The notes below the pieces were generated by a model. It made no database searches, was not told where the DNA came from, and worked only from the letters and a program-made list of their open reading frames with translations. Position numbers and translations under genes: made by a program. This document shows positions 999 through 10,623 of a stretch of 10,623 bases of DNA, piece after piece. The first letter of the stretch is position 1, and each line of letters opens with the position of its first letter. The stretch lies in the NCBI GenBank assembly GCA_035353375.1, contig DAOPZM010000018.1:26713-37335 (forward strand), written 5' to 3'. This DNA comes from Syntrophomonadaceae bacterium. Its GTDB lineage: Bacteria; Bacillota; Syntrophomonadia; Syntrophomonadales; Syntrophomonadaceae.

Positions 999-1367
999 AT
1001 GATCAGAGTCCAGTCGATTGAAAAGTGTGACTGTGATGTAATTCATGAGGATATCGTTGCGCAGGTGAAAAATATAATGCCTGAGGAAGAGACTCTTTAT
1101 GATCTGGCTGAATTGTTTAAAGTTTTTGGCGATACAACCAGAATAAAGATTCTATGGGCATTGGATTCAGCTGAAATGTGTGTCTGTGACATTGCTTATT
1201 TGTTGAATATGACCCAATCAGCCATTTCACATCAATTAAGAGTACTGAAGCAGGCCAAGCTGGTTAAAAACCGCAGAGAAGGGAAAATAGTTTTCTACTC
1301 GCTGGATGATGAGCATATAAAGCAAATATTTGAACTGGGTTTAATTCATATTTCCGAGGAAGAATAA
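999..1367 (+). CDS. cadC: ArsR/SmtB-family metal-sensing transcriptional repressor, CadC-like (thiolate alpha3N site plus alpha5 site)
   Basis: 122-aa ORF with a GGGAGG Shine-Dalgarno sequence 8 nt upstream. The winged-helix core is LAELFKVFGDTTRIKILWAL...MCVCDIAYLLNMTQSAISHQLRVLKQAKLV. N-terminal Cys pair in EKCDCD plus CVC in helix alpha3 form the alpha3N Cd/Pb/Zn site. The C-terminal DEHIKQIFELGLIHISE fits the alpha5 pattern DxHx10Hx2E. It is translationally adjacent to a P1B ATPase. Confidence 0.88.
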   Translation: MIRVQSIEKCDCDVIHEDIVAQVKNIMPEEETLYDLAELFKVFGDTTRIKILWALDSAEMCVCDIAYLLNMTQSAISHQLRVLKQAKLVKNRREGKIVFYSLDDEHIKQIFELGLIHISEEE

Positions 1368-1384
1368 ACCCTGGAGGACTGATA

Positions 1385-3307
1385 ATGTTGAAGCAGGATG
1401 AAGCAGCGGTTGCAGCCAGAATTGAAGCGAATAAAAACCCGGGCGACGAGGACAAATCAAATTTAAAAAAACAGGCAGTGATATTTTTATTCGGCGGAAC
1501 TTTATTTGCAGCCGGGGCGATTTTTACTTTCCCGGTTGGTCTGGAACTTACCGTATTCCTGCTGAGCTATTTGATTGTCGGCGGAAGCGTCATTTGGCGG
1601 GCAGTTAAAGGTATAGTCAGGGGGCAGGTGTTTAGTGAGCACTTCCTGATGAGTGTTGCTACGATTGGGGCTTTTTGTGTTGGGGCCTATTCTGAGGGGG
1701 CAGCTGTCATGCTGTTCTATCTGGTGGGTGAGATGTTTCAGGATATGGCGGTTGATCATTCCCGGAAATCGATTGGGATATTAATGGATATCAGACCGGA
1801 TTATGCCAATCTTAAAATTGGTGACGAAATAAAAAAGGTATCTCCTGAAGAAGTTTTATGCGGCGAAATAATAATCGTAAAGCCGGGCGAAAAGGTCCCC
1901 CTTGACGGCAGGGTCACAGAAGGAAAATCGATGGCCGATACATCTGCATTGACCGGCGAATCAGTCCCGCGCGCATTGGAACCCGGATGTGAGGTCTTAA
2001 GCGGATTTATAAATAATAATGGTGTTTTAACGGTTGAAGTGACTAAAACATACAGTGAATCAACTGTGGCCAGGATTTTGGATCTGGTTGAAAATGCCGG
2101 CAGCAGGAAAGCTCCCACCGAGGATTTTATAACAAAATTCGCCGGGTATTATACGCCGGTGGTGGTGTTTGGAGCGTTGGCACTGGCAATCATACCGCCT
2201 TTGGCAATCCCCGGGGCAGCTTTTTCTGACTGGATATACCGGTCCCTGATATTCCTGGTGATTTCTTGTCCCTGTGCATTAGTGATTTCCATTCCCCTGG
2301 GATTTTTCGGGGGGATCGGCGGAGCTTCCAAAAGAGGCATACTGGTAAAGGGCAGCAACTATCTGGAAGCTTTGAATAAAGTGGAGACAGTTGTTTTTGA
2401 CAAGACCGGCACATTAACCAAAGGTGTATTTAAAGTTACAGAAATAAATCCGCAAAATAATTATACCGGGGAAGAGCTCATCGAATACGCAGCTTATGCT
2501 GAGAGCTATTCCAACCACCCGATCGCGCTTTCAATCATAGAGGCATATAAGGCTGAACCAGATAAAAACCGGATTGAAAATTATGAAGAAATTGCCGGTC
2601 ATGGCATCAAGGTAACTGTCGACGGCCAAGAAGTTCTGGCCGGAAACAGCTGGCTGATGGCTGCTGAAAACATCAAATACAGCGAAGCTTGCGCGGCAGG
2701 GACAGTGATACATGTGGCAATAAACAAGGTGTATGCCGGTCATATTGTGGCAGCAGATGAAGTAAAGGAAGATGCTGCCCTGGCCATTAAAGAGCTTAAA
2801 GCCCTGGGGGTCAGGAAAACGGTAATGCTTACCGGAGATTTAAAAAGTATCGGCGACAGGGTCGGCCGGCAATTAGGCTTGGATGAGGTTTATGCTGAAT
2901 TACTGCCGGCTGACAAAGTCGATAAACTTGAAATACTGGAGAACCAAAAATCCCGTAAAGGGAAGGTGGCTTTCGTTGGTGACGGCATAAACGATGCCCC
3001 GGTTTTAGCCAGAGCGGATATCGGCATAGCCATGGGAGGACTTGGTTCGGATGCGGCGATTGAAGCTGCAGACATTGTAATTATGAACGATCAACCATCC
3101 AATATTGCAACTGCCATAAAAGTTGCCCGCCGAACCAGGAACATAGTATTGCAGAACATCGTATTTGCCCTGGGAGTTAAAGCTGCATTCCTGGTATTGG
3201 GCGGAGCAGGTCTGGCTACCATGTGGGAAGCAGTATTTGCGGATGTGGGGGTAGCATTGCTGGCGGTTTTTAATGCTATGAGGGTTATGTATACCAAAAG
3301 CATATAA
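1385..3307 (+). CDS. cadA: Heavy-metal-translocating P1B-2-type ATPase (Zn2+/Cd2+/Pb2+ exporter) lacking an N-terminal HMA metal-binding domain
   Basis: 640-aa ORF with a GGAGGA Shine-Dalgarno sequence 6 nt upstream. Motifs present: TGES (SALTGESVP), CPC in TM6 (ISCPCALVISIP), DKTGTLT, SNHP, GDGINDAP, and the TM7/TM8 signatures NIVFALGVK (Nx7K) and DVGVALLAVFN (DxGx7N). The N-terminus (MLKQDEAAVAARIEANKNPGDEDK...) has no CxxC motif or His-rich stretch. Confidence 0.92.
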   Translation: MLKQDEAAVAARIEANKNPGDEDKSNLKKQAVIFLFGGTLFAAGAIFTFPVGLELTVFLLSYLIVGGSVIWRAVKGIVRGQVFSEHFLMSVATIGAFCVGAYSEGAAVMLFYLVGEMFQDMAVDHSRKSIGILMDIRPDYANLKIGDEIKKVSPEEVLCGEIIIVKPGEKVPLDGRVTEGKSMADTSALTGESVPRALEPGCEVLSGFINNNGVLTVEVTKTYSESTVARILDLVENAGSRKAPTEDFITKFAGYYTPVVVFGALALAIIPPLAIPGAAFSDWIYRSLIFLVISCPCALVISIPLGFFGGIGGASKRGILVKGSNYLEALNKVETVVFDKTGTLTKGVFKVTEINPQNNYTGEELIEYAAYAESYSNHPIALSIIEAYKAEPDKNRIENYEEIAGHGIKVTVDGQEVLAGNSWLMAAENIKYSEACAAGTVIHVAINKVYAGHIVAADEVKEDAALAIKELKALGVRKTVMLTGDLKSIGDRVGRQLGLDEVYAELLPADKVDKLEILENQKSRKGKVAFVGDGINDAPVLARADIGIAMGGLGSDAAIEAADIVIMNDQPSNIATAIKVARRTRNIVLQNIVFALGVKAAFLVLGGAGLATMWEAVFADVGVALLAVFNAMRVMYTKSI

Positions 3308-3550: not shown

Positions 3551-4933
3551 TCAGATAAGATTGCGCCGTTTGGCTTCAAATTCCAATTCATCCCTGAAAT
3601 CGGGGTGGGCAACGCTGATTATATTTTTCACCCGCTGGCGGATAGACTGGCCCTTGATCTTGGCGGCACCGTACTCGGTTATGACATAATCAGCACATGA
3701 CCTGGGAGTAGTAATAATGCCCCCGGGTGTGATCTGTGGTGCAATTTTGGATATCATCTGGCCGCCGCCGCTTCTGGGAGTAGCAGTTGCAGTAGTGGCG
3801 ATAATCGACACCCCGCCTTTGGATTGGAATGCCCCGTCAACAAAATCAAGCTGTCCGCCCGGATGGGTATATTGTTTATAACCCATGGATTCCGAACAGA
3901 TCTGACCGGTCAGATCCACCTGCAGGCAGGCATTGATGGAGACCAGATTATCATTTTTGCCGATAATATACGGATTGTTAACAAAATTGACCGGGTAAAA
4001 CTCGATGCCGGGATTGTCATCTATCCAGTCGTAGAGTTTACGGGTGCCCATGGCGAAAGTAAAGATCGACCGGTAGGGCATAAAGGTCTTGCGCCGGTTG
4101 GTCACAACTTCGGCCTCCCACAAGTTGATCATAGTATCACAGGCCATTTCCGAATGGATACCGAGATCCTTGACATGAGTATCAAGAAATGCCTGGGCGA
4201 CTGCATTAGGTATGCTGCCTATCCCTAACTGAATGGTGGAACCGTCTTTGACAAATTCAGCGCAGCAGCGGCCGATAGTATCTTCTTCCGGAGTCATGGG
4301 GGCAGTATCAGGCAGAACCGCTAAATCCTGATCCTGCTCGACAATGGCGGTTATCTCGGAAATATGCAGGTAATTCATGCCCCGGCTCCGCGGCACCTGG
4401 TTATTGACCTGGGCCAGGACCATATAACGGTCATCCCCCTCGCGGCGTTTTTGAGCGGCATTTTTGGCTATCGCCAGAGTGGCATCAGCCCCAACACCCA
4501 GGCAAAAGTAGCCGTGTTTATCCATAGGAGTAACTAACACCATCGCTGTTTGCATAGGACGGAAGTTTTCATCGGTATAAATTTTTGGCAGTTCACAAAA
4601 GCGGTTGGGTGTCAGGGTAAATTCCCCGCTGACCACCAAATCGCGGCTAACCGAAGGATAGCCGCAGTCAACTCTGATATTGCTTTCCCGGCCCAGCTTG
4701 CGCCAGGTATTCTGCGGGTGGATATCGACGATGTGATTGATAGTTATATTTTCCACTTCCGGTTCCCGCGCTACCAATGCATCCACCAGTGCCAAAGGTA
4801 CAGGAACGGCTATTCCTATCCAGACCTCGGTATTGTTTTTTACCATTTTGGCAGCCTGCCCGGCTGACATTAACCTCTCCTTATACATTTCCTTTAAATT
4901 CAAAACTGTGCCCTCCTCGAAAAATTTCCACAT
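3551..4933 (-). CDS. CoA-transferase of the acetyl-CoA hydrolase/transferase family (4-hydroxybutyrate CoA-transferase / butyryl-CoA:acetate CoA-transferase-like)
   Basis: 460-aa ORF. YKERLMSAGQAAKMV resembles the YKEKLVTAE.A N-terminus of Cat2/AbfT-type enzymes. Also present: TIQLGIGSIPNAV, LGIHSEM, VSINACLQVDLTGQICSESMG (catalytic-Glu region), GGQLDFVDGA, and a C-terminal SVAHPDFRDELEFEAKRR. The start is ambiguous. The ATG at 4933 has its Shine-Dalgarno sequence abutting it. The in-frame ATG at 4888 (MYKERL) has a poor Shine-Dalgarno sequence. The ATG at 4870 (MSAGQ) follows AAGGAGAGG at ideal spacing. Confidence 0.85.
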   Translation of the reverse strand: MWKFFEEGTVLNLKEMYKERLMSAGQAAKMVKNNTEVWIGIAVPVPLALVDALVAREPEVENITINHIVDIHPQNTWRKLGRESNIRVDCGYPSVSRDLVVSGEFTLTPNRFCELPKIYTDENFRPMQTAMVLVTPMDKHGYFCLGVGADATLAIAKNAAQKRREGDDRYMVLAQVNNQVPRSRGMNYLHISEITAIVEQDQDLAVLPDTAPMTPEEDTIGRCCAEFVKDGSTIQLGIGSIPNAVAQAFLDTHVKDLGIHSEMACDTMINLWEAEVVTNRRKTFMPYRSIFTFAMGTRKLYDWIDDNPGIEFYPVNFVNNPYIIGKNDNLVSINACLQVDLTGQICSESMGYKQYTHPGGQLDFVDGAFQSKGGVSIIATTATATPRSGGGQMISKIAPQITPGGIITTPRSCADYVITEYGAAKIKGQSIRQRVKNIISVAHPDFRDELEFEAKRRNLI

Positions 4934-5520: not shown

Positions 5521-5749
5521 TGGAATCAGTAAAGAAGCGGACTTTTGACCATTTTATCAACTGCAGCAACAGCAGGACCATATGCTGGTAACCGCATTTC
5601 GCCCGGAGTTGACAGACGATTTAAGGATCCATAAGTATTTCCCGGGTATGGGCTGAAGTGTTCAAAATATCCAAAATTAAAAATATTGAAACTTTTTATA
5701 TTATGCAGGAACAAAATGTATACTTGTCGAAAAAGCTTATAATAAAAAA

Positions 5750-5850
5750 TATGCTCCGAGCCTTTTGACCTAAAGTTTTTTAGCTACGGTTTTCAGGCCG
5801 TCAGGGTGCATTCGGAAACGGGTGTGCCTCCCATTGTGGAAAGGAGAAGC
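5750..5850 (+). promoter_or_regulatory. Moco (molybdenum/tungsten cofactor) riboswitch aptamer, Moco RNA motif
   Basis: The three conserved strings I associate with the Moco RNA motif occur in the correct order: CUCCGAGCC (5754-5762), GCCUCCC (5826-5832) and GGAAAGG (5838-5844). A hairpin capped by a GAAA tetraloop immediately precedes GCCUCCC (CATTCG-GAAA-CGGGTG, 5809-5824). CCUUUU (5761-5766) can pair with GAAAGG (5839-5844). A TATAAT -10 box lies at 5738-5743, with a poor -35. Confidence 0.68.
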
Positions 5851-5866
5851 TGTATCAGGCCTGATT

Positions 5867-5904
5867 AAAGGCGGATTGCTTGTCGCAATCCGCCTTTATT
5901 GTTT
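5867..5904 (+). terminator. Rho-independent terminator (expression platform of riboswitch element 2)
   Basis: A perfect 13-bp stem AAAGGCGGATTGC / GCAATCCGCCTTT, loop TTGTC, followed by ATTGTTT. Confidence 0.8.
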
Positions 5905-5944
5905 ATCCGGCCATTGATGTAATATAAATAAAAATTTAATTTGT

Positions 5945-6040
5945 TGTTTCGAGTCTTTCTTCCTGCAGCCATCCTGGTATGGAAAAAGACCAATGTGCTA
6001 ACCCGGAAACAGGTTAACATCCCGCTTGGAAAGGAGCAAT
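5945..6040 (+). promoter_or_regulatory. Second, more divergent Moco-riboswitch-like aptamer
   Basis: Its layout is colinear with element 2. It has UUUCGAGUC (5947-5955) where element 2 has CUCCGAGCC. It has a hairpin with a GAAA tetraloop, TAACCCG-GAAA-CAGGTTA (6000-6017). This is followed by ACAUCCC (6017-6023), a 4-nt linker, and GGAAAGGAG (6028-6036). Confidence 0.42.
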
Positions 6041-6058
6041 TTTATTTAAATATTTTTC

Positions 6059-6093
6059 AGCTGGGATGGTTTTCTGTCCCAGCTTCTTTATTT
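6059..6093 (+). terminator. Rho-independent terminator (expression platform of element 3)
   Basis: Stem AGCTGGGA / TCCCAGCT (6059-6066 / 6077-6084), a 10-nt loop, followed by TCTTTATTT. Confidence 0.65.
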
Positions 6094-6174
6094 GAGAAGG
6101 AAGGAGCGGTAATAAACTTATATTCTGCAATTAAGGCCATGATTGAAGAGTACTCAGGAAAGTTGTGCCTTATA

Positions 6175-6217
6175 AATATTCTGTTGCCAAACTGATTTGG
6201 CTCAGCGGCAGAATATT
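6175..6217 (+). promoter_or_regulatory. Compound stem-loop in the 5' UTR just upstream of the surface-protein Shine-Dalgarno sequence
   Basis: AATATTCTG..GCC (6175-6188) pairs with GGCAGAATATT (6207-6217). This encloses a perfect inner hairpin GCCAAA-CTGA-TTTGGC (6186-6201). No U-tract follows, so it is not a terminator. Confidence 0.35.
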
Positions 6218-6258: not shown

Positions 6259-8469
6259 ATGCATAGGATGACGAAAAAATTATCAGGAATTTTTTTATTA
6301 ACGATGCTGGTATTATTGCCGGTCTTATGGGGCTCTGATGAAGCAAGCGCAGCAAGTACCAGCCTTACGGTTACAAAGCTTGCTTCTGATGGTGAGACTG
6401 TCATCGCCGAGAGAACTGTTGATTATGAGTGGCTCATGGATCCTGACAATATAAGAGTAATGGGGGACGGAAATACCCATTATTATCACCAGGGACCGGT
6501 ATTTATCGACGACCCTGATGAACAGGCCGAAGAACAGCTGCGCTGGAATCCGGAGGAAGATACAAACGTAGAGGACAAGGATATGGGAGCTGTAATGGGT
6601 ACCAATGTTGAAGATCTCTGCGAGCTGGTCGGAGGTATGTCGCGCGGTGAAACATTACAGATTAAAGCCAGTGACGGTCTTAAAAAAATGTTTGATTATG
6701 AAAATGTGTACGGCTATTCCAGCAAGGAAGGGCCTATGGTTGTCTGCTGGTATAAAGACGGCATGTACCCGGACACCGGATATAGCGACGGCATGCGGCT
6801 GGTCTGGTTTGCCGATGATTCCACCAACCCTTGGGGAATCAACGTTTTCGGCAATTGGGACTGGCACGAAGCTGCTGATTCTGAATACTGGTATTATTAT
6901 CGCAGCGGCGGTGAAAGTTATCCAACTACCACCGGACTTTCGATACAAAATGTTGCTTATTTGACCATTTACAGCAATGAAGACCCGCCTAAAGAACCGG
7001 AAGCTGATTTTAAAGCGGACAAAACCTCCGGTTATGCACCTCTTTCCGTCAAATTTACTGACAAGTCTGCTAATTCTCCCAGTGAATATGAATGGGACTT
7101 TGATAATGACGGTAAGGTAGATTCTACCGATCAAAACCCGAGCTTTAAATACAGTGAACCGGGAGTCTATACAGTCTGTCTTACTGCAGCCAATAGTATC
7201 GGCAGCGACGAGATGGTTAAGGCCGATTACATTACAGTCAGGGAAAAACCGTCAACCAAGACCCTGTTCAATGGCACGGTGGATTTGACATCAGGAAAAA
7301 CTATAAACGTGACGGCCTATAACTCAAATTCAAAATATGAGGTGAGTGAGACAACGACCCTGGGTGCGCTTGCAGCAGCAGCCGATGAGAAAAACTTCGA
7401 TTATGAAGTTACGGATAAAAAATATTCACAGTCGGGCGTGCTTCTCCTGGATGAGATCGAGAGTTATATAAGCGATGATCCCGGGGACTGGTATGTTTAT
7501 ATCAATGATGTTTATAAAGACAGCTACAATAAAAAATCTCACGCTTTAAACCTGCTTGAACTTAAAGATGGTGACGAAGTTGATTTCTACTATGCAGAGG
7601 ATATTAACGATCCGGATGATATTGATGATGTTGAGTATTGGGCATCAGCCGCAATAAAAATTGCTGTGTCGATCAGTGAGGCTGCCAGCAAGCCGGTTGC
7701 AGCTTTTACTGCCGCCCCTGTCAATGGTACGGAACCTCTGACAGTCAGTTTTATCAACCAGTCTACCGGTACTGGACCGTTAACTTATGAATGGGATTTT
7801 GACAATGACGGGCTGGCAGACTCCACTGACCGTAATCCGGAATATATTTATAAGACTGCCGGGACTTACACGGTCAAACTGACAGTAACTAATGAAGCCG
7901 GCAGCGATGAGGAAATCAAGACGGGCTATATTACGGCCAAAGCTTCGGATATAGCTGCATTATATGACATTGCCGGACACTGGGCCCAGGGGAGTATAGA
8001 AAGTCTGTTGGCCTCAGGAGCTGTCAGCGGCTATCCTGACAATAGCTTCAGGCCGGATGCGACAATTACCCGGGGCGAGTTTGTCACTATCCTGGTAAAA
8101 GCTTTCAAACTCGAACCTGGGACCGGAAAATTATTCACAGATACGACCGGCCACTGGGCCAAAGACTATATTTCTGCTGCCGCAGCGCTGGGGATTGTAA
8201 ATGGTTACGATGTAAATTGCTTTGGCCCCGATGACCTGATCACCCGGGAACAGATGGCAGTGATGATTATCAAAGCGCTGGATATCGGACTGATACCCGG
8301 TGACCCTGCATTTTCCGACCAGACCAGCATCTCTGACTGGGCAAAAAGTTCAGTAAAAACGGCCGGCGAGGAAGGGATTTTATCGGGGTATCCGGATAAC
8401 ACCTTCCGTCCGCAGGGTAATGCAACCAGGGCAGAGGCGGTGATGGTAATTGCAAAGGCTTTGGAATAA
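6259..8469 (+). CDS. Sec-exported, SLH-anchored multidomain cell-surface protein. Domain order: signal peptide, ~210-aa N-terminal domain (sulfite-oxidase-family-like pattern), PKD, DUF4430-like, PKD, 3x SLH.
   Basis: 736-aa ORF with an AGGAGG Shine-Dalgarno sequence 8 nt upstream. Domains by nucleotide range:
- Signal peptide: MHRMTKKLSGIFLLTMLVLLPVLWGSDEASA, with no twin-arginine motif.
- N-terminal domain: ~6355-6990.
- PKD 1: ~7000-7240 (PLSVKFTDKS...WDFDNDGKVDS...NPSFKYSEPGVYTVCLTAANSIGSDE).
- DUF4430-like: ~7261-7600 (TTLGAL...GDWYVYINDV...LKDGDEVDFYYAE).
- PKD 2: ~7693-7940.
- Three SLH repeats: ~7966-8466 (DIAGHWAQ..., FTDTTGHWAKDYI..., FSDQTSISDWAKSSV...GYPDNTFRPQGNATRAEA). Confidence 0.9.
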   Translation: MHRMTKKLSGIFLLTMLVLLPVLWGSDEASAASTSLTVTKLASDGETVIAERTVDYEWLMDPDNIRVMGDGNTHYYHQGPVFIDDPDEQAEEQLRWNPEEDTNVEDKDMGAVMGTNVEDLCELVGGMSRGETLQIKASDGLKKMFDYENVYGYSSKEGPMVVCWYKDGMYPDTGYSDGMRLVWFADDSTNPWGINVFGNWDWHEAADSEYWYYYRSGGESYPTTTGLSIQNVAYLTIYSNEDPPKEPEADFKADKTSGYAPLSVKFTDKSANSPSEYEWDFDNDGKVDSTDQNPSFKYSEPGVYTVCLTAANSIGSDEMVKADYITVREKPSTKTLFNGTVDLTSGKTINVTAYNSNSKYEVSETTTLGALAAAADEKNFDYEVTDKKYSQSGVLLLDEIESYISDDPGDWYVYINDVYKDSYNKKSHALNLLELKDGDEVDFYYAEDINDPDDIDDVEYWASAAIKIAVSISEAASKPVAAFTAAPVNGTEPLTVSFINQSTGTGPLTYEWDFDNDGLADSTDRNPEYIYKTAGTYTVKLTVTNEAGSDEEIKTGYITAKASDIAALYDIAGHWAQGSIESLLASGAVSGYPDNSFRPDATITRGEFVTILVKAFKLEPGTGKLFTDTTGHWAKDYISAAAALGIVNGYDVNCFGPDDLITREQMAVMIIKALDIGLIPGDPAFSDQTSISDWAKSSVKTAGEEGILSGYPDNTFRPQGNATRAEAVMVIAKALE

Positions 8470-8612: not shown

Positions 8613-10623
8613 ATGGACAACCTGATAAAGAAAACTTTGGGAATACTGCTGGTCGCATTTATGCTTTTGATAACGGTAGTATTATCACCGGCAGAAGCAA
8701 GCGTAACAGCAGGGACAACCAGCCTTACCATCAAAAAGCTTGCTAATGACGGAACGACTGTTTTAAGCCAGAAGACTGTCACCTATCAGGAGTTAATGGC
8801 CGGGGAACTTAATGATGACACGGTTATACCCATATTAGGCGATGGAACTACTCATTATTATCACCAGGGACCGGTATTTGTCGACGATCCTGATGAGGCA
8901 ACCGAACAGACGCTTCGCTGGAATCAAGCGGAAGATACCAGTGTCCTGACTAAGGATATGGGGGCTGTCAAGGGTACCAATGTGAAGGACCTCTGTGACT
9001 TGGTCGGAGGTATGGTAACAGGTGATACATTACAAATTAAAGCCAGTGACGGTCTTAAGAAAACGTTTGCTTATGAAAATGTGTACGGATACTCGGTTCG
9101 TGAGGGGCCAATGGCGATATGCTGGTATAAGGACGGAGGAACTCCTGAAACAACCTATACCGAGGGCATGCGCCTGGTCTGGTTTGCCGATGATTCAGTC
9201 AACACATTGGGTGAGGGCGGAGCAGGTGTTCATGCCTTCGGCAACTGGGACTGGCACGAAGCTGCGGCTGAACAATACTGGTACTTTTACACGGATACTA
9301 CAGTAACAGGAACAGGAACTGAAACTGAATATTACCCTACCACAACCGGCCTGTCTGTACAAAAAGTTTCCGAATTGATTATATTAAGTGATGAAGAACC
9401 GCCGGCGCCGACAGCTGCCTTTACATCCGATGTACAATCCGGTGCAGCACCGCTGACAGTCAGCTTCACTGACCAGTCCACCTATAATCCCACTTCTTGG
9501 GCCTGGGATTTCAATAATGACAGTACGGTGGATTCTACCGAACAGAACCCCGAGTTTACTTATGAAACAGCCGGGACCTATACGGTTAAAATGACAGCGA
9601 CCAATGCAAAAGGCAACGATGAAGAGATAAAGACTGACTACATTACAGTAAGTCCTGCTCATGCTGACTTCCCCATACAGTTAATCGGTACGTCAACTGT
9701 TGACATGAGTAAAGCCGATATGGAAGGATTGCTTAATACAGCCAATACTTATACCGATAGCAACGGTAATATTTTTGCAGGCGTACCATTACAGCAACTG
9801 ATCGCTAAAGTGGATGATAATGATACTGCCACATTAAATACTTCACTTTTGGGAACCTATAATATTGTGTTTACAGGTTTGAACCAGGATGGGACCGACT
9901 TTGTTAAAACCGCGGCAGCAGGCAGTTGGAGTACCATGATTACGGATGGGAATATCCAGACCAATGACGTGTTTGTCGCTACCAAGGTAAAGATCGGTGG
10001 AACCGGTGAATTTGCCGATCTGCCACTTGTAAGTGTCAACAATGCAACTAAAAACTGGCGCCCAGGTATTTTGAACGGCAGCGGGATAACCGGATCAGGA
10101 AACCGCATCGGCGGGTTATACAAAATCGAATTGACTGGTCTTGCGGCGGTAGCACCGACAGCTGCCTTCACATCCGATGTACAATCCGGTGCAGCACCGC
10201 TGACGGTCAGCTTTACTGACCAGTCCACCGGAACCCCGACATCATGGGCCTGGGATTTCAATAATGACAGTACGGTGGATTCTACCGAACAGAATCCCGA
10301 ATTTACTTATGAAACAGCCGGGACCTATACGGTTAAACTGACAGCGACCAATACTGAAGGCAACGATGAAGAGATAAAGAATGACTACATTACGGTTACT
10401 GAAGCATCGACCATGGACGTACTGTATGACGGAACAGTTGCTTTAACACTTAATAAAACCTTCGATGTGACGGCTTACAACTCGTCTGCTTCTTATACAG
10501 TCGATGAAACTACCCCGTTGGGAGCACTACAGGCAACCGGCTTGACCTATGGAGTAACAGATAAGAATTATGCAAGCTCAGGAGCTTTGCTATTGGACAA
10601 TGTAGGAACTTATCTGCGTGATA
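8613..10623 (+). CDS. Paralogous Sec-exported multidomain surface protein, 3'-truncated by the window edge. Domain order: signal peptide, same N-terminal domain, PKD, second diverged molybdopterin-oxidoreductase-like domain, PKD, DUF4430-like...
   Basis: My own translation from the ATG at 8613 (GAGGGGAG Shine-Dalgarno sequence 7 nt upstream) is open through 10623: MDNLIKKTLGILLVAFMLLITVVLSPAEASVTAGTTSLTIKKLANDGTTVLSQKTVTYQELM...GDGTTHYYHQGPVFVDDPDE...LQIKASDGLKKTFAYENVYGY...GMRLVWFADDS...FGNWDWHEAA...YPTTTGLSVQKV... PKD domains lie at ~9411-9650 and ~10158-10397. A middle domain lies at ~9660-10140 (GVPLQQLIAKV...IVFTGLNQDGTDF...GGLYKIELTG). A DUF4430-like start follows (VLYDGTVALTLNKTFDVTAYN...TTPLGALQATGLTYGVTDKNY...). 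It is absent from the ORF track because no stop codon lies in the window. Confidence 0.88.
   Translation, partial: MDNLIKKTLGILLVAFMLLITVVLSPAEASVTAGTTSLTIKKLANDGTTVLSQKTVTYQELMAGELNDDTVIPILGDGTTHYYHQGPVFVDDPDEATEQTLRWNQAEDTSVLTKDMGAVKGTNVKDLCDLVGGMVTGDTLQIKASDGLKKTFAYENVYGYSVREGPMAICWYKDGGTPETTYTEGMRLVWFADDSVNTLGEGGAGVHAFGNWDWHEAAAEQYWYFYTDTTVTGTGTETEYYPTTTGLSVQKVSELIILSDEEPPAPTAAFTSDVQSGAAPLTVSFTDQSTYNPTSWAWDFNNDSTVDSTEQNPEFTYETAGTYTVKMTATNAKGNDEEIKTDYITVSPAHADFPIQLIGTSTVDMSKADMEGLLNTANTYTDSNGNIFAGVPLQQLIAKVDDNDTATLNTSLLGTYNIVFTGLNQDGTDFVKTAAAGSWSTMITDGNIQTNDVFVATKVKIGGTGEFADLPLVSVNNATKNWRPGILNGSGITGSGNRIGGLYKIELTGLAAVAPTAAFTSDVQSGAAPLTVSFTDQSTGTPTSWAWDFNNDSTVDSTEQNPEFTYETAGTYTVKLTATNTEGNDEEIKNDYITVTEASTMDVLYDGTVALTLNKTFDVTAYNSSASYTVDETTPLGALQATGLTYGVTDKNYASSGALLLDNVGTYLRD
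9408..9650 (+). repeat. Copy A of a ~243-bp intragenic direct repeat (a whole PKD module)
   Basis: It aligns without gaps to 10155-10397. By eye I count ~20 mismatches, about 92% identity. The offset is 747 bp (249 codons), so the copies are in frame. Confidence 0.85.
10155..10397 (+). repeat. Copy B of the ~243-bp intragenic direct repeat (PKD module)
   Basis: Same alignment as copy A. Mismatches cluster in one ~15-nt patch (TATAATCCCACTTCT vs GGAACCCCGACATCA) and in a second short patch (GCAAAA vs ACTGAA). Confidence 0.85.

Follow-up and report, generated by a model that had tools for sequence, protein, structure and literature searches.

Two surface proteins share an N-terminal domain behind tandem riboswitches

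We analysed a stretch of 10,623 nucleotides from a Syntrophomonadaceae bacterium (contig DAOPZM010000018.1, positions 26,713 to 37,335; hereafter the window), in which two adjacent genes encode large surface proteins. As an earlier note made from the letters of this DNA had proposed, both proteins carry a paralogous domain, here called the N-domain, and riboswitches of the molybdenum cofactor (Moco) motif, two in number, lie before gene 1. The domain has ~215 amino acids (a.a.) and follows a signal peptide. The subject of this report is the N-domain, its very probable descent from the sulfite oxidase (SUOX) fold and its putative part in the uptake of tungsten (W) and molybdenum (Mo). The features that concern it are the following, in window coordinates.

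5742-5862, forward strand: Moco-motif riboswitch aptamer 1, P3-less (RF01055, 80 bits)
5866-5898, forward strand: intrinsic terminator of riboswitch 1, 14-bp stem and T run (terminator scan)
5935-6052, forward strand: Moco-motif riboswitch aptamer 2, P3-less (RF01055, 50.4 bits)
6059-6084, forward strand: intrinsic terminator of riboswitch 2, 11-bp stem and T run (terminator scan)
6259-8469, forward strand: gene 1, open reading frame (ORF) for a 736-a.a. surface protein (Pfam SLH, E 2e-42; PKD_4, E 1e-25)
6259-6351, forward strand: predicted Sec-type signal peptide of gene 1, MHRMTKKLSGIFLLTMLVLLPVLWGSDEASA, with no twin-arginine motif (read from the sequence)
6349-7002, forward strand: gene 1 N-domain, a cysteine-less, insert-bearing SUOX (Oxidored_molyb) derivative (hhalign, AlphaFold2, Foldseek)
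7249-7668, forward strand: tentative DUF4430-like module of gene 1 (BLASTP to gene 2 a.a. 596-670)
7957-8466, forward strand: three SLH repeats of gene 1, the cell-wall anchor (PF00395, E 2.4e-42, three stretches)
8613-10623, forward strand: gene 2, the first 670 of 2068 a.a., continuing past the window end
~8709-9437, forward strand: gene 2 N-domain, with a longer Thr/Gly-rich insert before YPTTTGLS (family hidden Markov model (HMM), independent E-value (i-E) 9.6e-123)
~9648-10148, forward strand: degenerate type-B repeat of gene 2, a.a. 346-512 (BLASTP to sister repeats)

The gene 1 protein is built, in order, of the signal peptide, the N-domain, a PKD domain, the DUF4430-like module, a second PKD domain and three SLH repeats. 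The remainder of gene 2 was read from locus L001, an ENA metagenome contig with identical DNA in the Syntrophomonadaceae metagenome-assembled genome (MAG) GCA_035404145.1, where the full contig-level ORF spans 12355-18561. According to the Pfam and HMM map, the complete protein contains two N-domain copies, five type-B SUOX-like repeats, PKD, DUF4430-like, Cadherin-like and Big_3 domains and three SLH repeats; its second true N-domain occupies a.a. 1335-1538 (family HMM, i-E 1.5e-50). The DUF4430-like module (~135 a.a.) occurs twice in gene 2 (a.a. ~596-870; window part 10410-10623), with PF14478 matching the full-length protein at E 0.0049. The isolated gene 1 segment has no Pfam match, and its assignment is therefore tentative. 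We take DUF4430 to be related to the cobalamin-binding, transcobalamin-type domains.

The two genes are closely related overall (BLASTP E 7e-156), and their N-domains are ~66% identical. All of the sequence blocks quoted in the earlier note were found (SLTVTKL..GETVIAERTVDYEWLM, GTNVEDLCELVGG, TLQIKASDG, PMVVCWYKDG, DGMRLVWFAD and GDGNTHYYHQGP); the two paralogs do not differ in HYYHQGPVF, FGNWDWHEA and YPTTTGLS, and the domain limits proposed there were about right when set against the folded domain listed above. A simple tandem-repeat artefact was rejected, since four independent assemblies all retain the paralogs as separate genes.

The N-domain family is large and highly conserved, with a similarity that goes far past what chance would give. 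It has 376 homologues in the 90%-clustered protein set and 616 clusters at 50% identity with E<=1e-3 (334 of them with E<=1e-30), many proteins having 2-4 copies; with the membrane-anchored paralog described below as the query, a sister subfamily gave 876 matches. Invariant columns number about 30 in the first subfamily and 14 across both, and the conserved inserts are rich in aromatic residues and His (HYYHQGPVF, RWN.EED.N, FGN.DWH, YWYYY and YPTTTGLS). Neither Pfam nor NCBIfam assigned anything to the N-domain region in any family protein scanned. The public names of family members are "hypothetical protein" or "argininosuccinate synthase" (P0027, P0088 and P0330 among the latter); we reject the second label, probably a propagated misannotation, because no such domain is detectable. 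A description of the family was not found in the literature on the Moco riboswitch with tungstate, Syntrophomonas or WtpA, or in that on sulfite oxidase.

Each locus contains 2-7 N-domain copies, in places several per polypeptide. In five Methanomicrobiales loci (L039, L052, L057, L066 and L072), 5-7 separate N-domain genes lie within 20 kb, each with its own anchor, an expansion reminiscent, by analogy, of multiple orphan binding proteins serving one transporter.

Moco riboswitches recur before N-domain genes

The two riboswitches are genuine matches to the Rfam model, since both aptamers exceed the RF01055 gathering score of 36 bits. Both lie on the same strand as gene 1 and upstream of it, each with a terminator directly 3', and in both the model positions 59-73, which form the P3 stem, are deleted in the alignment. 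An 84-a.a. ORF in the mechanical ORF list (5941-6195) overlaps riboswitch 2 and its terminator and is almost certainly no gene. For the P3-less RNA class, sensing of the tungsten cofactor (Tuco) has been proposed; to our knowledge, the ligand specificity has never been demonstrated biochemically. P3-less Moco RNAs correlate with Tuco metabolism, and tandem and triple Moco RNAs with individual terminators are present in Syntrophomonas wolfei (Regulski et al. 2008, PMC2408646). The tandem aptamers of the window (5742-6084) match the "digital" tandem arrangement of the Tuco class in S. wolfei. In that organism P3-less RNAs also precede "putative sulphite oxidase" genes, which was recorded as an exception (Regulski et al., PMC2408646).

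RF01055 matches stand directly 5' of N-domain genes at ten further loci (L009, L012, L013, L015, L019, L020, L028, L045, L050 and L067), in tandem at L012 and L020. Two other observations concern the surroundings of such loci. At L007, a further Moco riboswitch (15306-15425) precedes an SLH-anchored protein (15643-17529) with a Shr-like heme-interacting domain, PF07550. At L020, from a Syntrophomonas MAG, a NiCo (nickel/cobalt) riboswitch (688-773) lies ~9 kb 5' of the tandem Moco riboswitches, so that trace-metal regulons are clustered there.

The N-domain is a distant offshoot of the SUOX fold

The earlier note had likened the order of the conserved blocks to that of the SUOX-family Oxidored_molyb domain (PF00174) and had suggested Pfam and PDB searches. 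Single-sequence searches of Pfam, NCBIfam and the PDB gave nothing for the N-domain. None of 92 family members matched PF00174 even at E<=1, its gathering threshold was not reached by either window N-domain, and phmmer and hmmsearch runs of the domain and of a 47-sequence profile against PDB sequences returned only noise (a WD40 protein, E 0.04; YqeU, E 1.6).

The inference of a SUOX-family fold was nevertheless supported by remote profile alignment, HMM detection and AlphaFold/Foldseek, which concur. The intermediate is a membrane-anchored protein of 193 a.a. encoded 12 kb downstream on L001 (20913-21494), which matches PF00174 above the gathering score (E 2.5e-11). The profile of this 193-a.a. 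family matches the plant sulfite oxidase 1ogp (E 4e-4) over the LLAYEMNG...GFPLRVVVPG...VKW region, the last two blocks of the family pairing with VLLAYEMNG and GFPLRVVVPG. Aligned with hhalign, the N-domain and the 193-a.a. family gave a probability of 97.8% (E 1e-12, 90 columns), and a more diverse 92-sequence N-domain profile gave 98.15% (E 6.4e-14, 126 columns). The first two strands are aligned with each other, and after them KGTNVEDLCELVGG with KGVTLEELCEQVGG, LQIKASDG with VMITAKDG, VVCWYKDG with ILMYKQDG, and DGMRLVWF with GKPFRIAVV. All five blocks of the correspondence drawn in the earlier note are thus covered by the 126-column alignment to a PF00174 family. In addition, the 193-a.a. 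family HMM alone detected 134 of 231 N-domain copies (83 loci) at i-E<1e-5, the best at 1.7e-9, through the 40-residue GV.L.DLC..VGG....D.V.I.A.DG block. Alignments of the N-domain and 193-a.a. profiles to the single E. coli MsrP (YedY) sequence were uninformative (probability ~1%), so that the position of the Cys cannot be fixed against MsrP. Taken together, the N-domain is a distant SUOX-fold offshoot and not a PF00174 member.

The supposed third copy is a type-B repeat

A "further diverged copy" of the domain had been placed at ~9660-10140 in gene 2. This region gave no match to the family HMM and is not an N-domain copy; it is the degenerate type-B SUOX-like repeat listed above, similar to gene 2 a.a. 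879-1037 (BLASTP E 1.9e-10), 1542-1686 (2.7e-7), 1044-1129 (2.5e-5) and 1210-1337 (3.4e-4). Four further type-B repeats lie beyond the window, at a.a. 879-1037, 1044-1200, 1210-1337 and 1542-1686 (L001 14980-17430). These sister repeats match PF00174 weakly one by one (E 3e-6 to 8e-3 each; whole protein 2.3e-13), and hhalign relates the type-B repeats to the 193-a.a. family at 95.8%.

The type-B consensus contains LAC..sgH, a Cys-x4-His motif in which the Cys and the His are each 84% conserved (189 domains from 46 bacterial and archaeal loci). Its Cys would fall roughly at the place of the SUOX Mo ligand, with residue 24 of the repeat corresponding to Pfam profile position 42. The repeat of the window has no Cys-x4-His, reading LLNTA in place of LAC..SGH. 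The type-B proteins thus keep a Cys near the Mo-ligand place, yet they are Sec-exported surface proteins. Aligned directly, the N-domain and type-B profiles gave a weak match (hhalign 34%, 23 columns around the DG block), and the two appear to be related only through the 193-a.a. family.

N-domain genes travel with a tungstate transporter

On L001, the order of the operon is gene 1, gene 2, a metallophosphatase, a 288-a.a. N-domain paralog with a C-terminal transmembrane anchor, the 193-a.a. PF00174 protein and WtpA, with no strong terminator between gene 1 and wtpA. The WtpA of L001 is partial and scores 205 bits against TIGR03730 over 228 a.a., below the 243-bit cutoff; those of L007, L011 and L009 score 305, 292 and 286 bits. 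The transporter downstream was read from the orthologous loci L007 and L009, the near-identical database entry of the 193-a.a. protein being a truncated copy on short contigs. There, WtpA is followed by two genes whose best matches are WtpB and WtpC, and then by another PKD protein, itself N-domain-bearing. The Methanomicrobiales locus L011 encodes two N-domain proteins, a 195-a.a. PF00174 protein, WtpA, a permease and an ATPase, with MobB, a MOT1-type molybdate transporter and a metallophosphatase in the vicinity.

Scanning one genome per species, we found 72 loci, with 57-80% identity to the window domain, in Syntrophomonas, Syntrophothermus, other Syntrophomonadaceae, Pelotomaculum, Desulfotomaculaceae, Dehalococcoidia and Methanomicrobiales (Methanolinea, Methanoregula and Methanomicrobiaceae). 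Among the 25 loci with full 20-kb context, WtpA is present in 18, WtpA together with the 193-a.a. family in 16, and at least two N-domain genes in 23. Nearly all of these 16 share the order N-domain, (N-domain), 193-a.a. protein, WtpA on one strand, in Firmicutes and Methanomicrobiales alike. Natural fusions of the N-domain to PF00174, 460-500 a.a. long, occur mostly in Dehalococcoidia and in some methanogens (for example P0333, P0335, P0339 and P0340; L044 7424, L046 635, L052 4996 and L057 5364). In short, gene order kept in both bacteria and archaea, together with gene fusion, couples the N-domain genetically to WtpABC and to another Cys-less SUOX-like protein.

A further member of the cassette conserved in Firmicutes and methanogens is a secreted metallophosphatase resembling purple acid phosphatases (Pur_ac_phosph_N and Metallophos; L001 18710-20047; L007 7719-8960; L010 1265-2545; L011 19147-19833). 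Purple acid phosphatases bind tungstate and molybdate tightly as inhibitors. Across the divide between bacteria and archaea, N-domains are about 60-70% identical, and those of Methanolinea/Methanoregulaceae (L030, L036-L043 and others) are 64-68% identical to the Syntrophomonadaceae domain. This identity and a cassette common to both groups point to horizontal exchange between syntrophic bacteria and the methanogens that partner them.

The company of PKD, Cadherin-like, Big, dockerin and SLH domains is typical of surface adhesins, and the N-domain might accordingly be a structural or adhesive module of the S-layer or sheath that has no role in Mo or W and whose neighbourhood is coincidental. 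We regard this as very improbable, given that riboswitch control recurs in at least 10 independent bacterial loci, that the gene order with WtpABC is kept across two domains of life, and that the domain is naturally fused to the PF00174 protein.

Upstream of the riboswitches, the window carries these other genes.

999-1367, forward strand: ArsR-type regulator
1385-3307, forward strand: heavy-metal P-type ATPase (E1-E2_ATPase)
3551-4933, reverse strand: acetyl-CoA hydrolase/transferase

The ArsR-family regulator and the P-type ATPase (999-3307) form a pair of the metal-efflux type and lie next to the riboswitch operon on four assemblies.

The predicted structure resembles the pterin-binding protein PruR

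AlphaFold2 models of the N-domain were obtained from 47 sequences (pLDDT 79) and from 92 sequences (pLDDT 88.2, pTM 0.87). Searched with Foldseek, a check that the earlier note had recommended, both gave PruR as the sole significant PDB matches. Ranks 1-7 were all PruR (Vibrio vulnificus, V. cholerae, Klebsiella and Agrobacterium), with a probability of 0.98-1.00, E 2.4e-3 to 2e-2 and a target-normalised TM-score of 0.52-0.67 over ~204 columns, nearly the entire PruR chain; at rank 8 the probability falls to 0.16. PruR is a periplasmic pterin-binding protein with a degenerate SUOX fold, which binds pterins and not Moco (PMC11194511). The beta-hairpin on which the Mo-ligating Cys would sit is cut short in PruR, with Trp in place of the Cys; a PW motif stands at the former Cys position, and the pterin is sandwiched by N-x-Y and Trp (PMC11194511). 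Since neither PruR nor the N-domain has the Mo-ligating Cys, binding proteins fit better than enzymes.

These matches raise the possibility that the N-domain is a PruR-like pterin or cofactor receptor, which would bind free molybdopterin, Moco/Tuco from lysed neighbours or another excreted pterin at its vestigial Moco cleft, and would salvage the metal or cofactor or signal its availability to the transporter. Significant structural matches were confined to PruR proteins, which bind pterins and one of which was solved with neopterin. The invariant aromatics are unusually many (Y45, Y46, W66, Y117, Y121, W134, W172 and Y180-Y184), and in the sequence alignment the conserved N119-V-Y121 seems to recall N102-x-Y104 of PruR. 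A surface relay would be more sensible for a bulky or labile ligand; the cassette conserves a phosphatase, and molybdopterin carries a phosphate; the sister type-B repeats retain a Cys in the Mo-ligand loop; and the DUF4430-like modules and the Shr-like heme-interacting protein of L007, encoded in the same loci, are relatives of cofactor-binding modules. Against such a receptor, the neighbouring WtpABC is a transporter of the usual oxyanion-importing type and not one for vitamins or cofactors, a sequence-based guess puts the SUOX-conserved Tyr at Y117 and not at Y121, and we know of no organism in which extracellular Moco or molybdopterin is salvaged. On balance we consider a receptor of this kind unlikely, if the most serious of the alternatives. 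As for the ligand itself, the similarity to PruR, the aromatic-rich invariant residues and the phosphatase favour a bulky, pterin-type molecule, and the WtpABC partner favours an oxyanion.

The Mo-ligating cysteine is absent and export is of the Sec type

In SUOX enzymes the Mo ligand is found in the segment that joins the first pair of strands to the GV.L.DLL helix. The equivalent N-domain segment reads (L/I)PV.GDG.THYYHQGPVF.DDPD....E..LRWN.EED.N...KDMGA.KGT and is free of Cys in all 47 and in all 92 aligned members, which bears out the claim that the Mo-ligating Cys is missing. The earlier note had also set HYYHQGP opposite the CAGNRR motif of sulfite oxidases; the Cys-free loop stood, and the exact residue equivalence is approximate, as the loop alignments are of low confidence. 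The sole near-invariant Cys of the N-domain, C91, is inside the DLC.LVGG helix, at a position that is mostly Cys in the 193-a.a. family too.

Extracytoplasmic Moco enzymes loaded with cofactor are exported folded via Tat. A loose Tat-like RR pattern was present in 8 of 120 and 4 of 120 homologues and in none of the window proteins, and the export signals of the N-domain proteins are, as predicted from sequence, of the Sec type. The anchors vary with the host envelope, from SLH in Firmicutes to C-terminal transmembrane or PGF-like tails in archaea, and also include dockerin and PKD; all of them point to a predicted surface location. No heme, cytochrome or iron-sulfur partner is encoded in the inspected loci. 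The Cys-free loop, the Sec signals and this lack of a redox partner together argue against a conventional Moco enzyme.

An unconventional one may still be considered, namely a true extracellular molybdo- or tungsto-enzyme with a non-cysteine ligand (His, Tyr or Asp) that performs redox or hydrolytic catalysis at the surface, for example the conversion of thiomolybdate or thiotungstate to transportable oxyanions. The SUOX ancestry and the extreme conservation of polar and His residues would suit such an enzyme, and Moco-motif RNAs precede cofactor-using enzyme genes, including the "putative sulphite oxidase" of S. wolfei (PMC2408646). The missing canonical Cys, Sec rather than Tat signals and loci devoid of an electron-transfer partner all argue the other way, as do closest structures that belong to the non-enzymatic PruR with its truncated cleft, and a copy number, per locus and per polypeptide, typical of binding modules. 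We therefore hold an enzyme to be improbable. What is observed is a domain that is extracytoplasmic, insert-bearing and, in bacteria, controlled by Moco/Tuco riboswitches, and that, very probably, has descended from the SUOX fold with loss of the Cys and is no Moco enzyme.

A putative surface module for tungsten and molybdenum uptake

The N-domain is most likely a non-redox binding module, because the Cys is lost, the proteins are exported unfolded via Sec, and they are displayed at the surface. We consider it reasonably probable that the domain is an accessory to W/Mo uptake, a putative surface capture module serving WtpABC, and we infer that it acts as a non-catalytic binding module that is made at cofactor shortage and passes a W or Mo species to WtpA. 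When the W or Mo pterin cofactor is scarce, the tandem P3-less riboswitches would cease terminating transcription, and one long operon would be transcribed for the two giant surface proteins, the phosphatase-like enzyme, the membrane-anchored N-domain paralog, the 193-a.a. protein and WtpABC. The SUOX-derived surface array might then capture the scarce W/Mo species, of which an oxyanion, a thio-oxyanion and a pterin-bound form are candidates, at a vestigial cofactor/oxyanion pocket, and would hand it, directly or after processing, to the tungstate-binding WtpA for import.

Several points weigh against this interpretation. Tungstate is a small, freely diffusing anion, and WtpA alone reportedly binds it at picomolar affinity (Bevers et al. 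2006, cited in PMC2408646), so that the need for a surface relay is not evident. Conservation is very high, at about 60% identity between bacteria and archaea and with numerous invariant His, Asp, Arg, Asn and Tyr residues, and would equally suit a catalytic site. Moco riboswitches also precede the genes of cofactor-using enzymes, and riboswitch control alone is therefore no proof of a role in uptake. Roughly one in four of the complete loci lacks WtpA within 10 kb. Finally, the PruR match is a modest one (E 2e-3, query-normalised TM-score ~0.44, root-mean-square deviation 6-7 Å, ~11% identity), and canonical full SUOX enzymes are absent among the top Foldseek PDB matches.

A more far-reaching proposal, which we think doubtful and somewhat less likely than a PruR-like receptor alone, is that the N-domain, the 193-a.a. 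protein and the Cys-x4-His type-B repeats jointly form a salvage machine for the W/Mo-pterin cofactor or its breakdown products, released by neighbours in syntrophic consortia. In such a scheme, capture of the cofactor outside the cell would fall to the pterin-binding folds, the phosphatase and the domains would strip the cofactor, and WtpABC would import the freed metal. If true, this would be the first extracellular system for handling Moco/Tuco, horizontally shared by syntrophic bacteria and their methanogen partners.

Uptake of W and Mo is thought to require only an ABC transporter, ModABC, TupABC or WtpABC. Both metals limit formate dehydrogenase and formylmethanofuran dehydrogenase, the enzymes behind electron transfer between species and behind methanogenesis in anaerobic digesters and sediments. 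Surface display, presumed induction by cofactor shortage and, in syntrophic Firmicutes, Dehalococcoidia and Methanomicrobiales, synteny with WtpABC would imply an unrecognised extracellular step in W/Mo acquisition, horizontally traded within the syntrophic guild, by a family missing from Pfam and NCBIfam though large and highly conserved. If the S. wolfei "sulphite oxidase" genes behind P3-less RNAs are of the N-domain type, their products would not be Moco enzymes but surface proteins without cofactor, encoded in a tungsten uptake operon, a candidate explanation of the anomaly recorded in 2008.

Comparison with known systems

The SUOX/YedY proteins of PF00174 have the same block order as the N-domain, as traced through the transitive profile alignments: the first strands, GV.L.DLL..VGG, V.F.A.DG, LLAY.MNG and G.P.RLV. 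The N-domain differs from them in being sub-threshold in Pfam, in lacking the Mo-ligating Cys, in its Sec export, and in having no dimerisation, heme or cytochrome partner.

Its nearest sequence relative is the 193-a.a. protein with its 41 homologues (hhalign 98%), which is also extracytoplasmic, is also cysteine-less in the Mo-ligand loop (GGFFST there), and always adjoins the N-domain, to which it is sometimes fused. The 193-a.a. protein, itself uncharacterised, differs in being compact, above the PF00174 threshold and without the HYYHQGP, FGN.DWH, YWYYY and YPTTTGLS inserts, and in having an N-terminal signal-anchor, whereas the N-domain proteins have a cleaved signal and a C-terminal anchor.

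The Isd/NEAT heme relay and the surface cobalamin-binding DUF4430 proteins differ in fold and ligand, which are unrelated to those of the N-domain. Relays of the Isd/NEAT type in Gram-positive bacteria feed ABC importers. By analogy, the logic that may be shared is that of starvation-induced, wall-anchored, multi-copy modules combined with a substrate-binding protein and an ABC permease.

The closest parallel in structure is PruR (PDB 7kou, 7kos, 7kom, 7kp2 and 7rkb), which, like the N-domain, is secreted and has a degenerate SUOX fold with no Mo-ligating Cys. Cys-less binding proteins of the SUOX fold are so far known from this one family (2015-2024). The N-domain family differs from it in sequence, size, architecture, taxonomy, regulation and partners. 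The sequence identity is ~10-12%; PruR is a single domain of ~140 a.a., whereas the N-domain has ~215 a.a., with ~70 residues of conserved inserts, within multi-domain, wall-anchored giants. PruR is encoded in Proteobacteria in an operon with the c-di-GMP enzyme DcpA; N-domain genes, which occur in Firmicutes, Chloroflexota and methanogenic archaea, follow Moco/Tuco riboswitches and neighbour WtpABC. No DcpA-type GGDEF/EAL gene adjoins them in the inspected loci, where the neighbours are WtpABC, the metallophosphatase and PKD/SLH proteins. The family thus broadens an idea so far built on PruR, namely that evolution has more than once reused the SUOX fold as a cofactor-free binding module.

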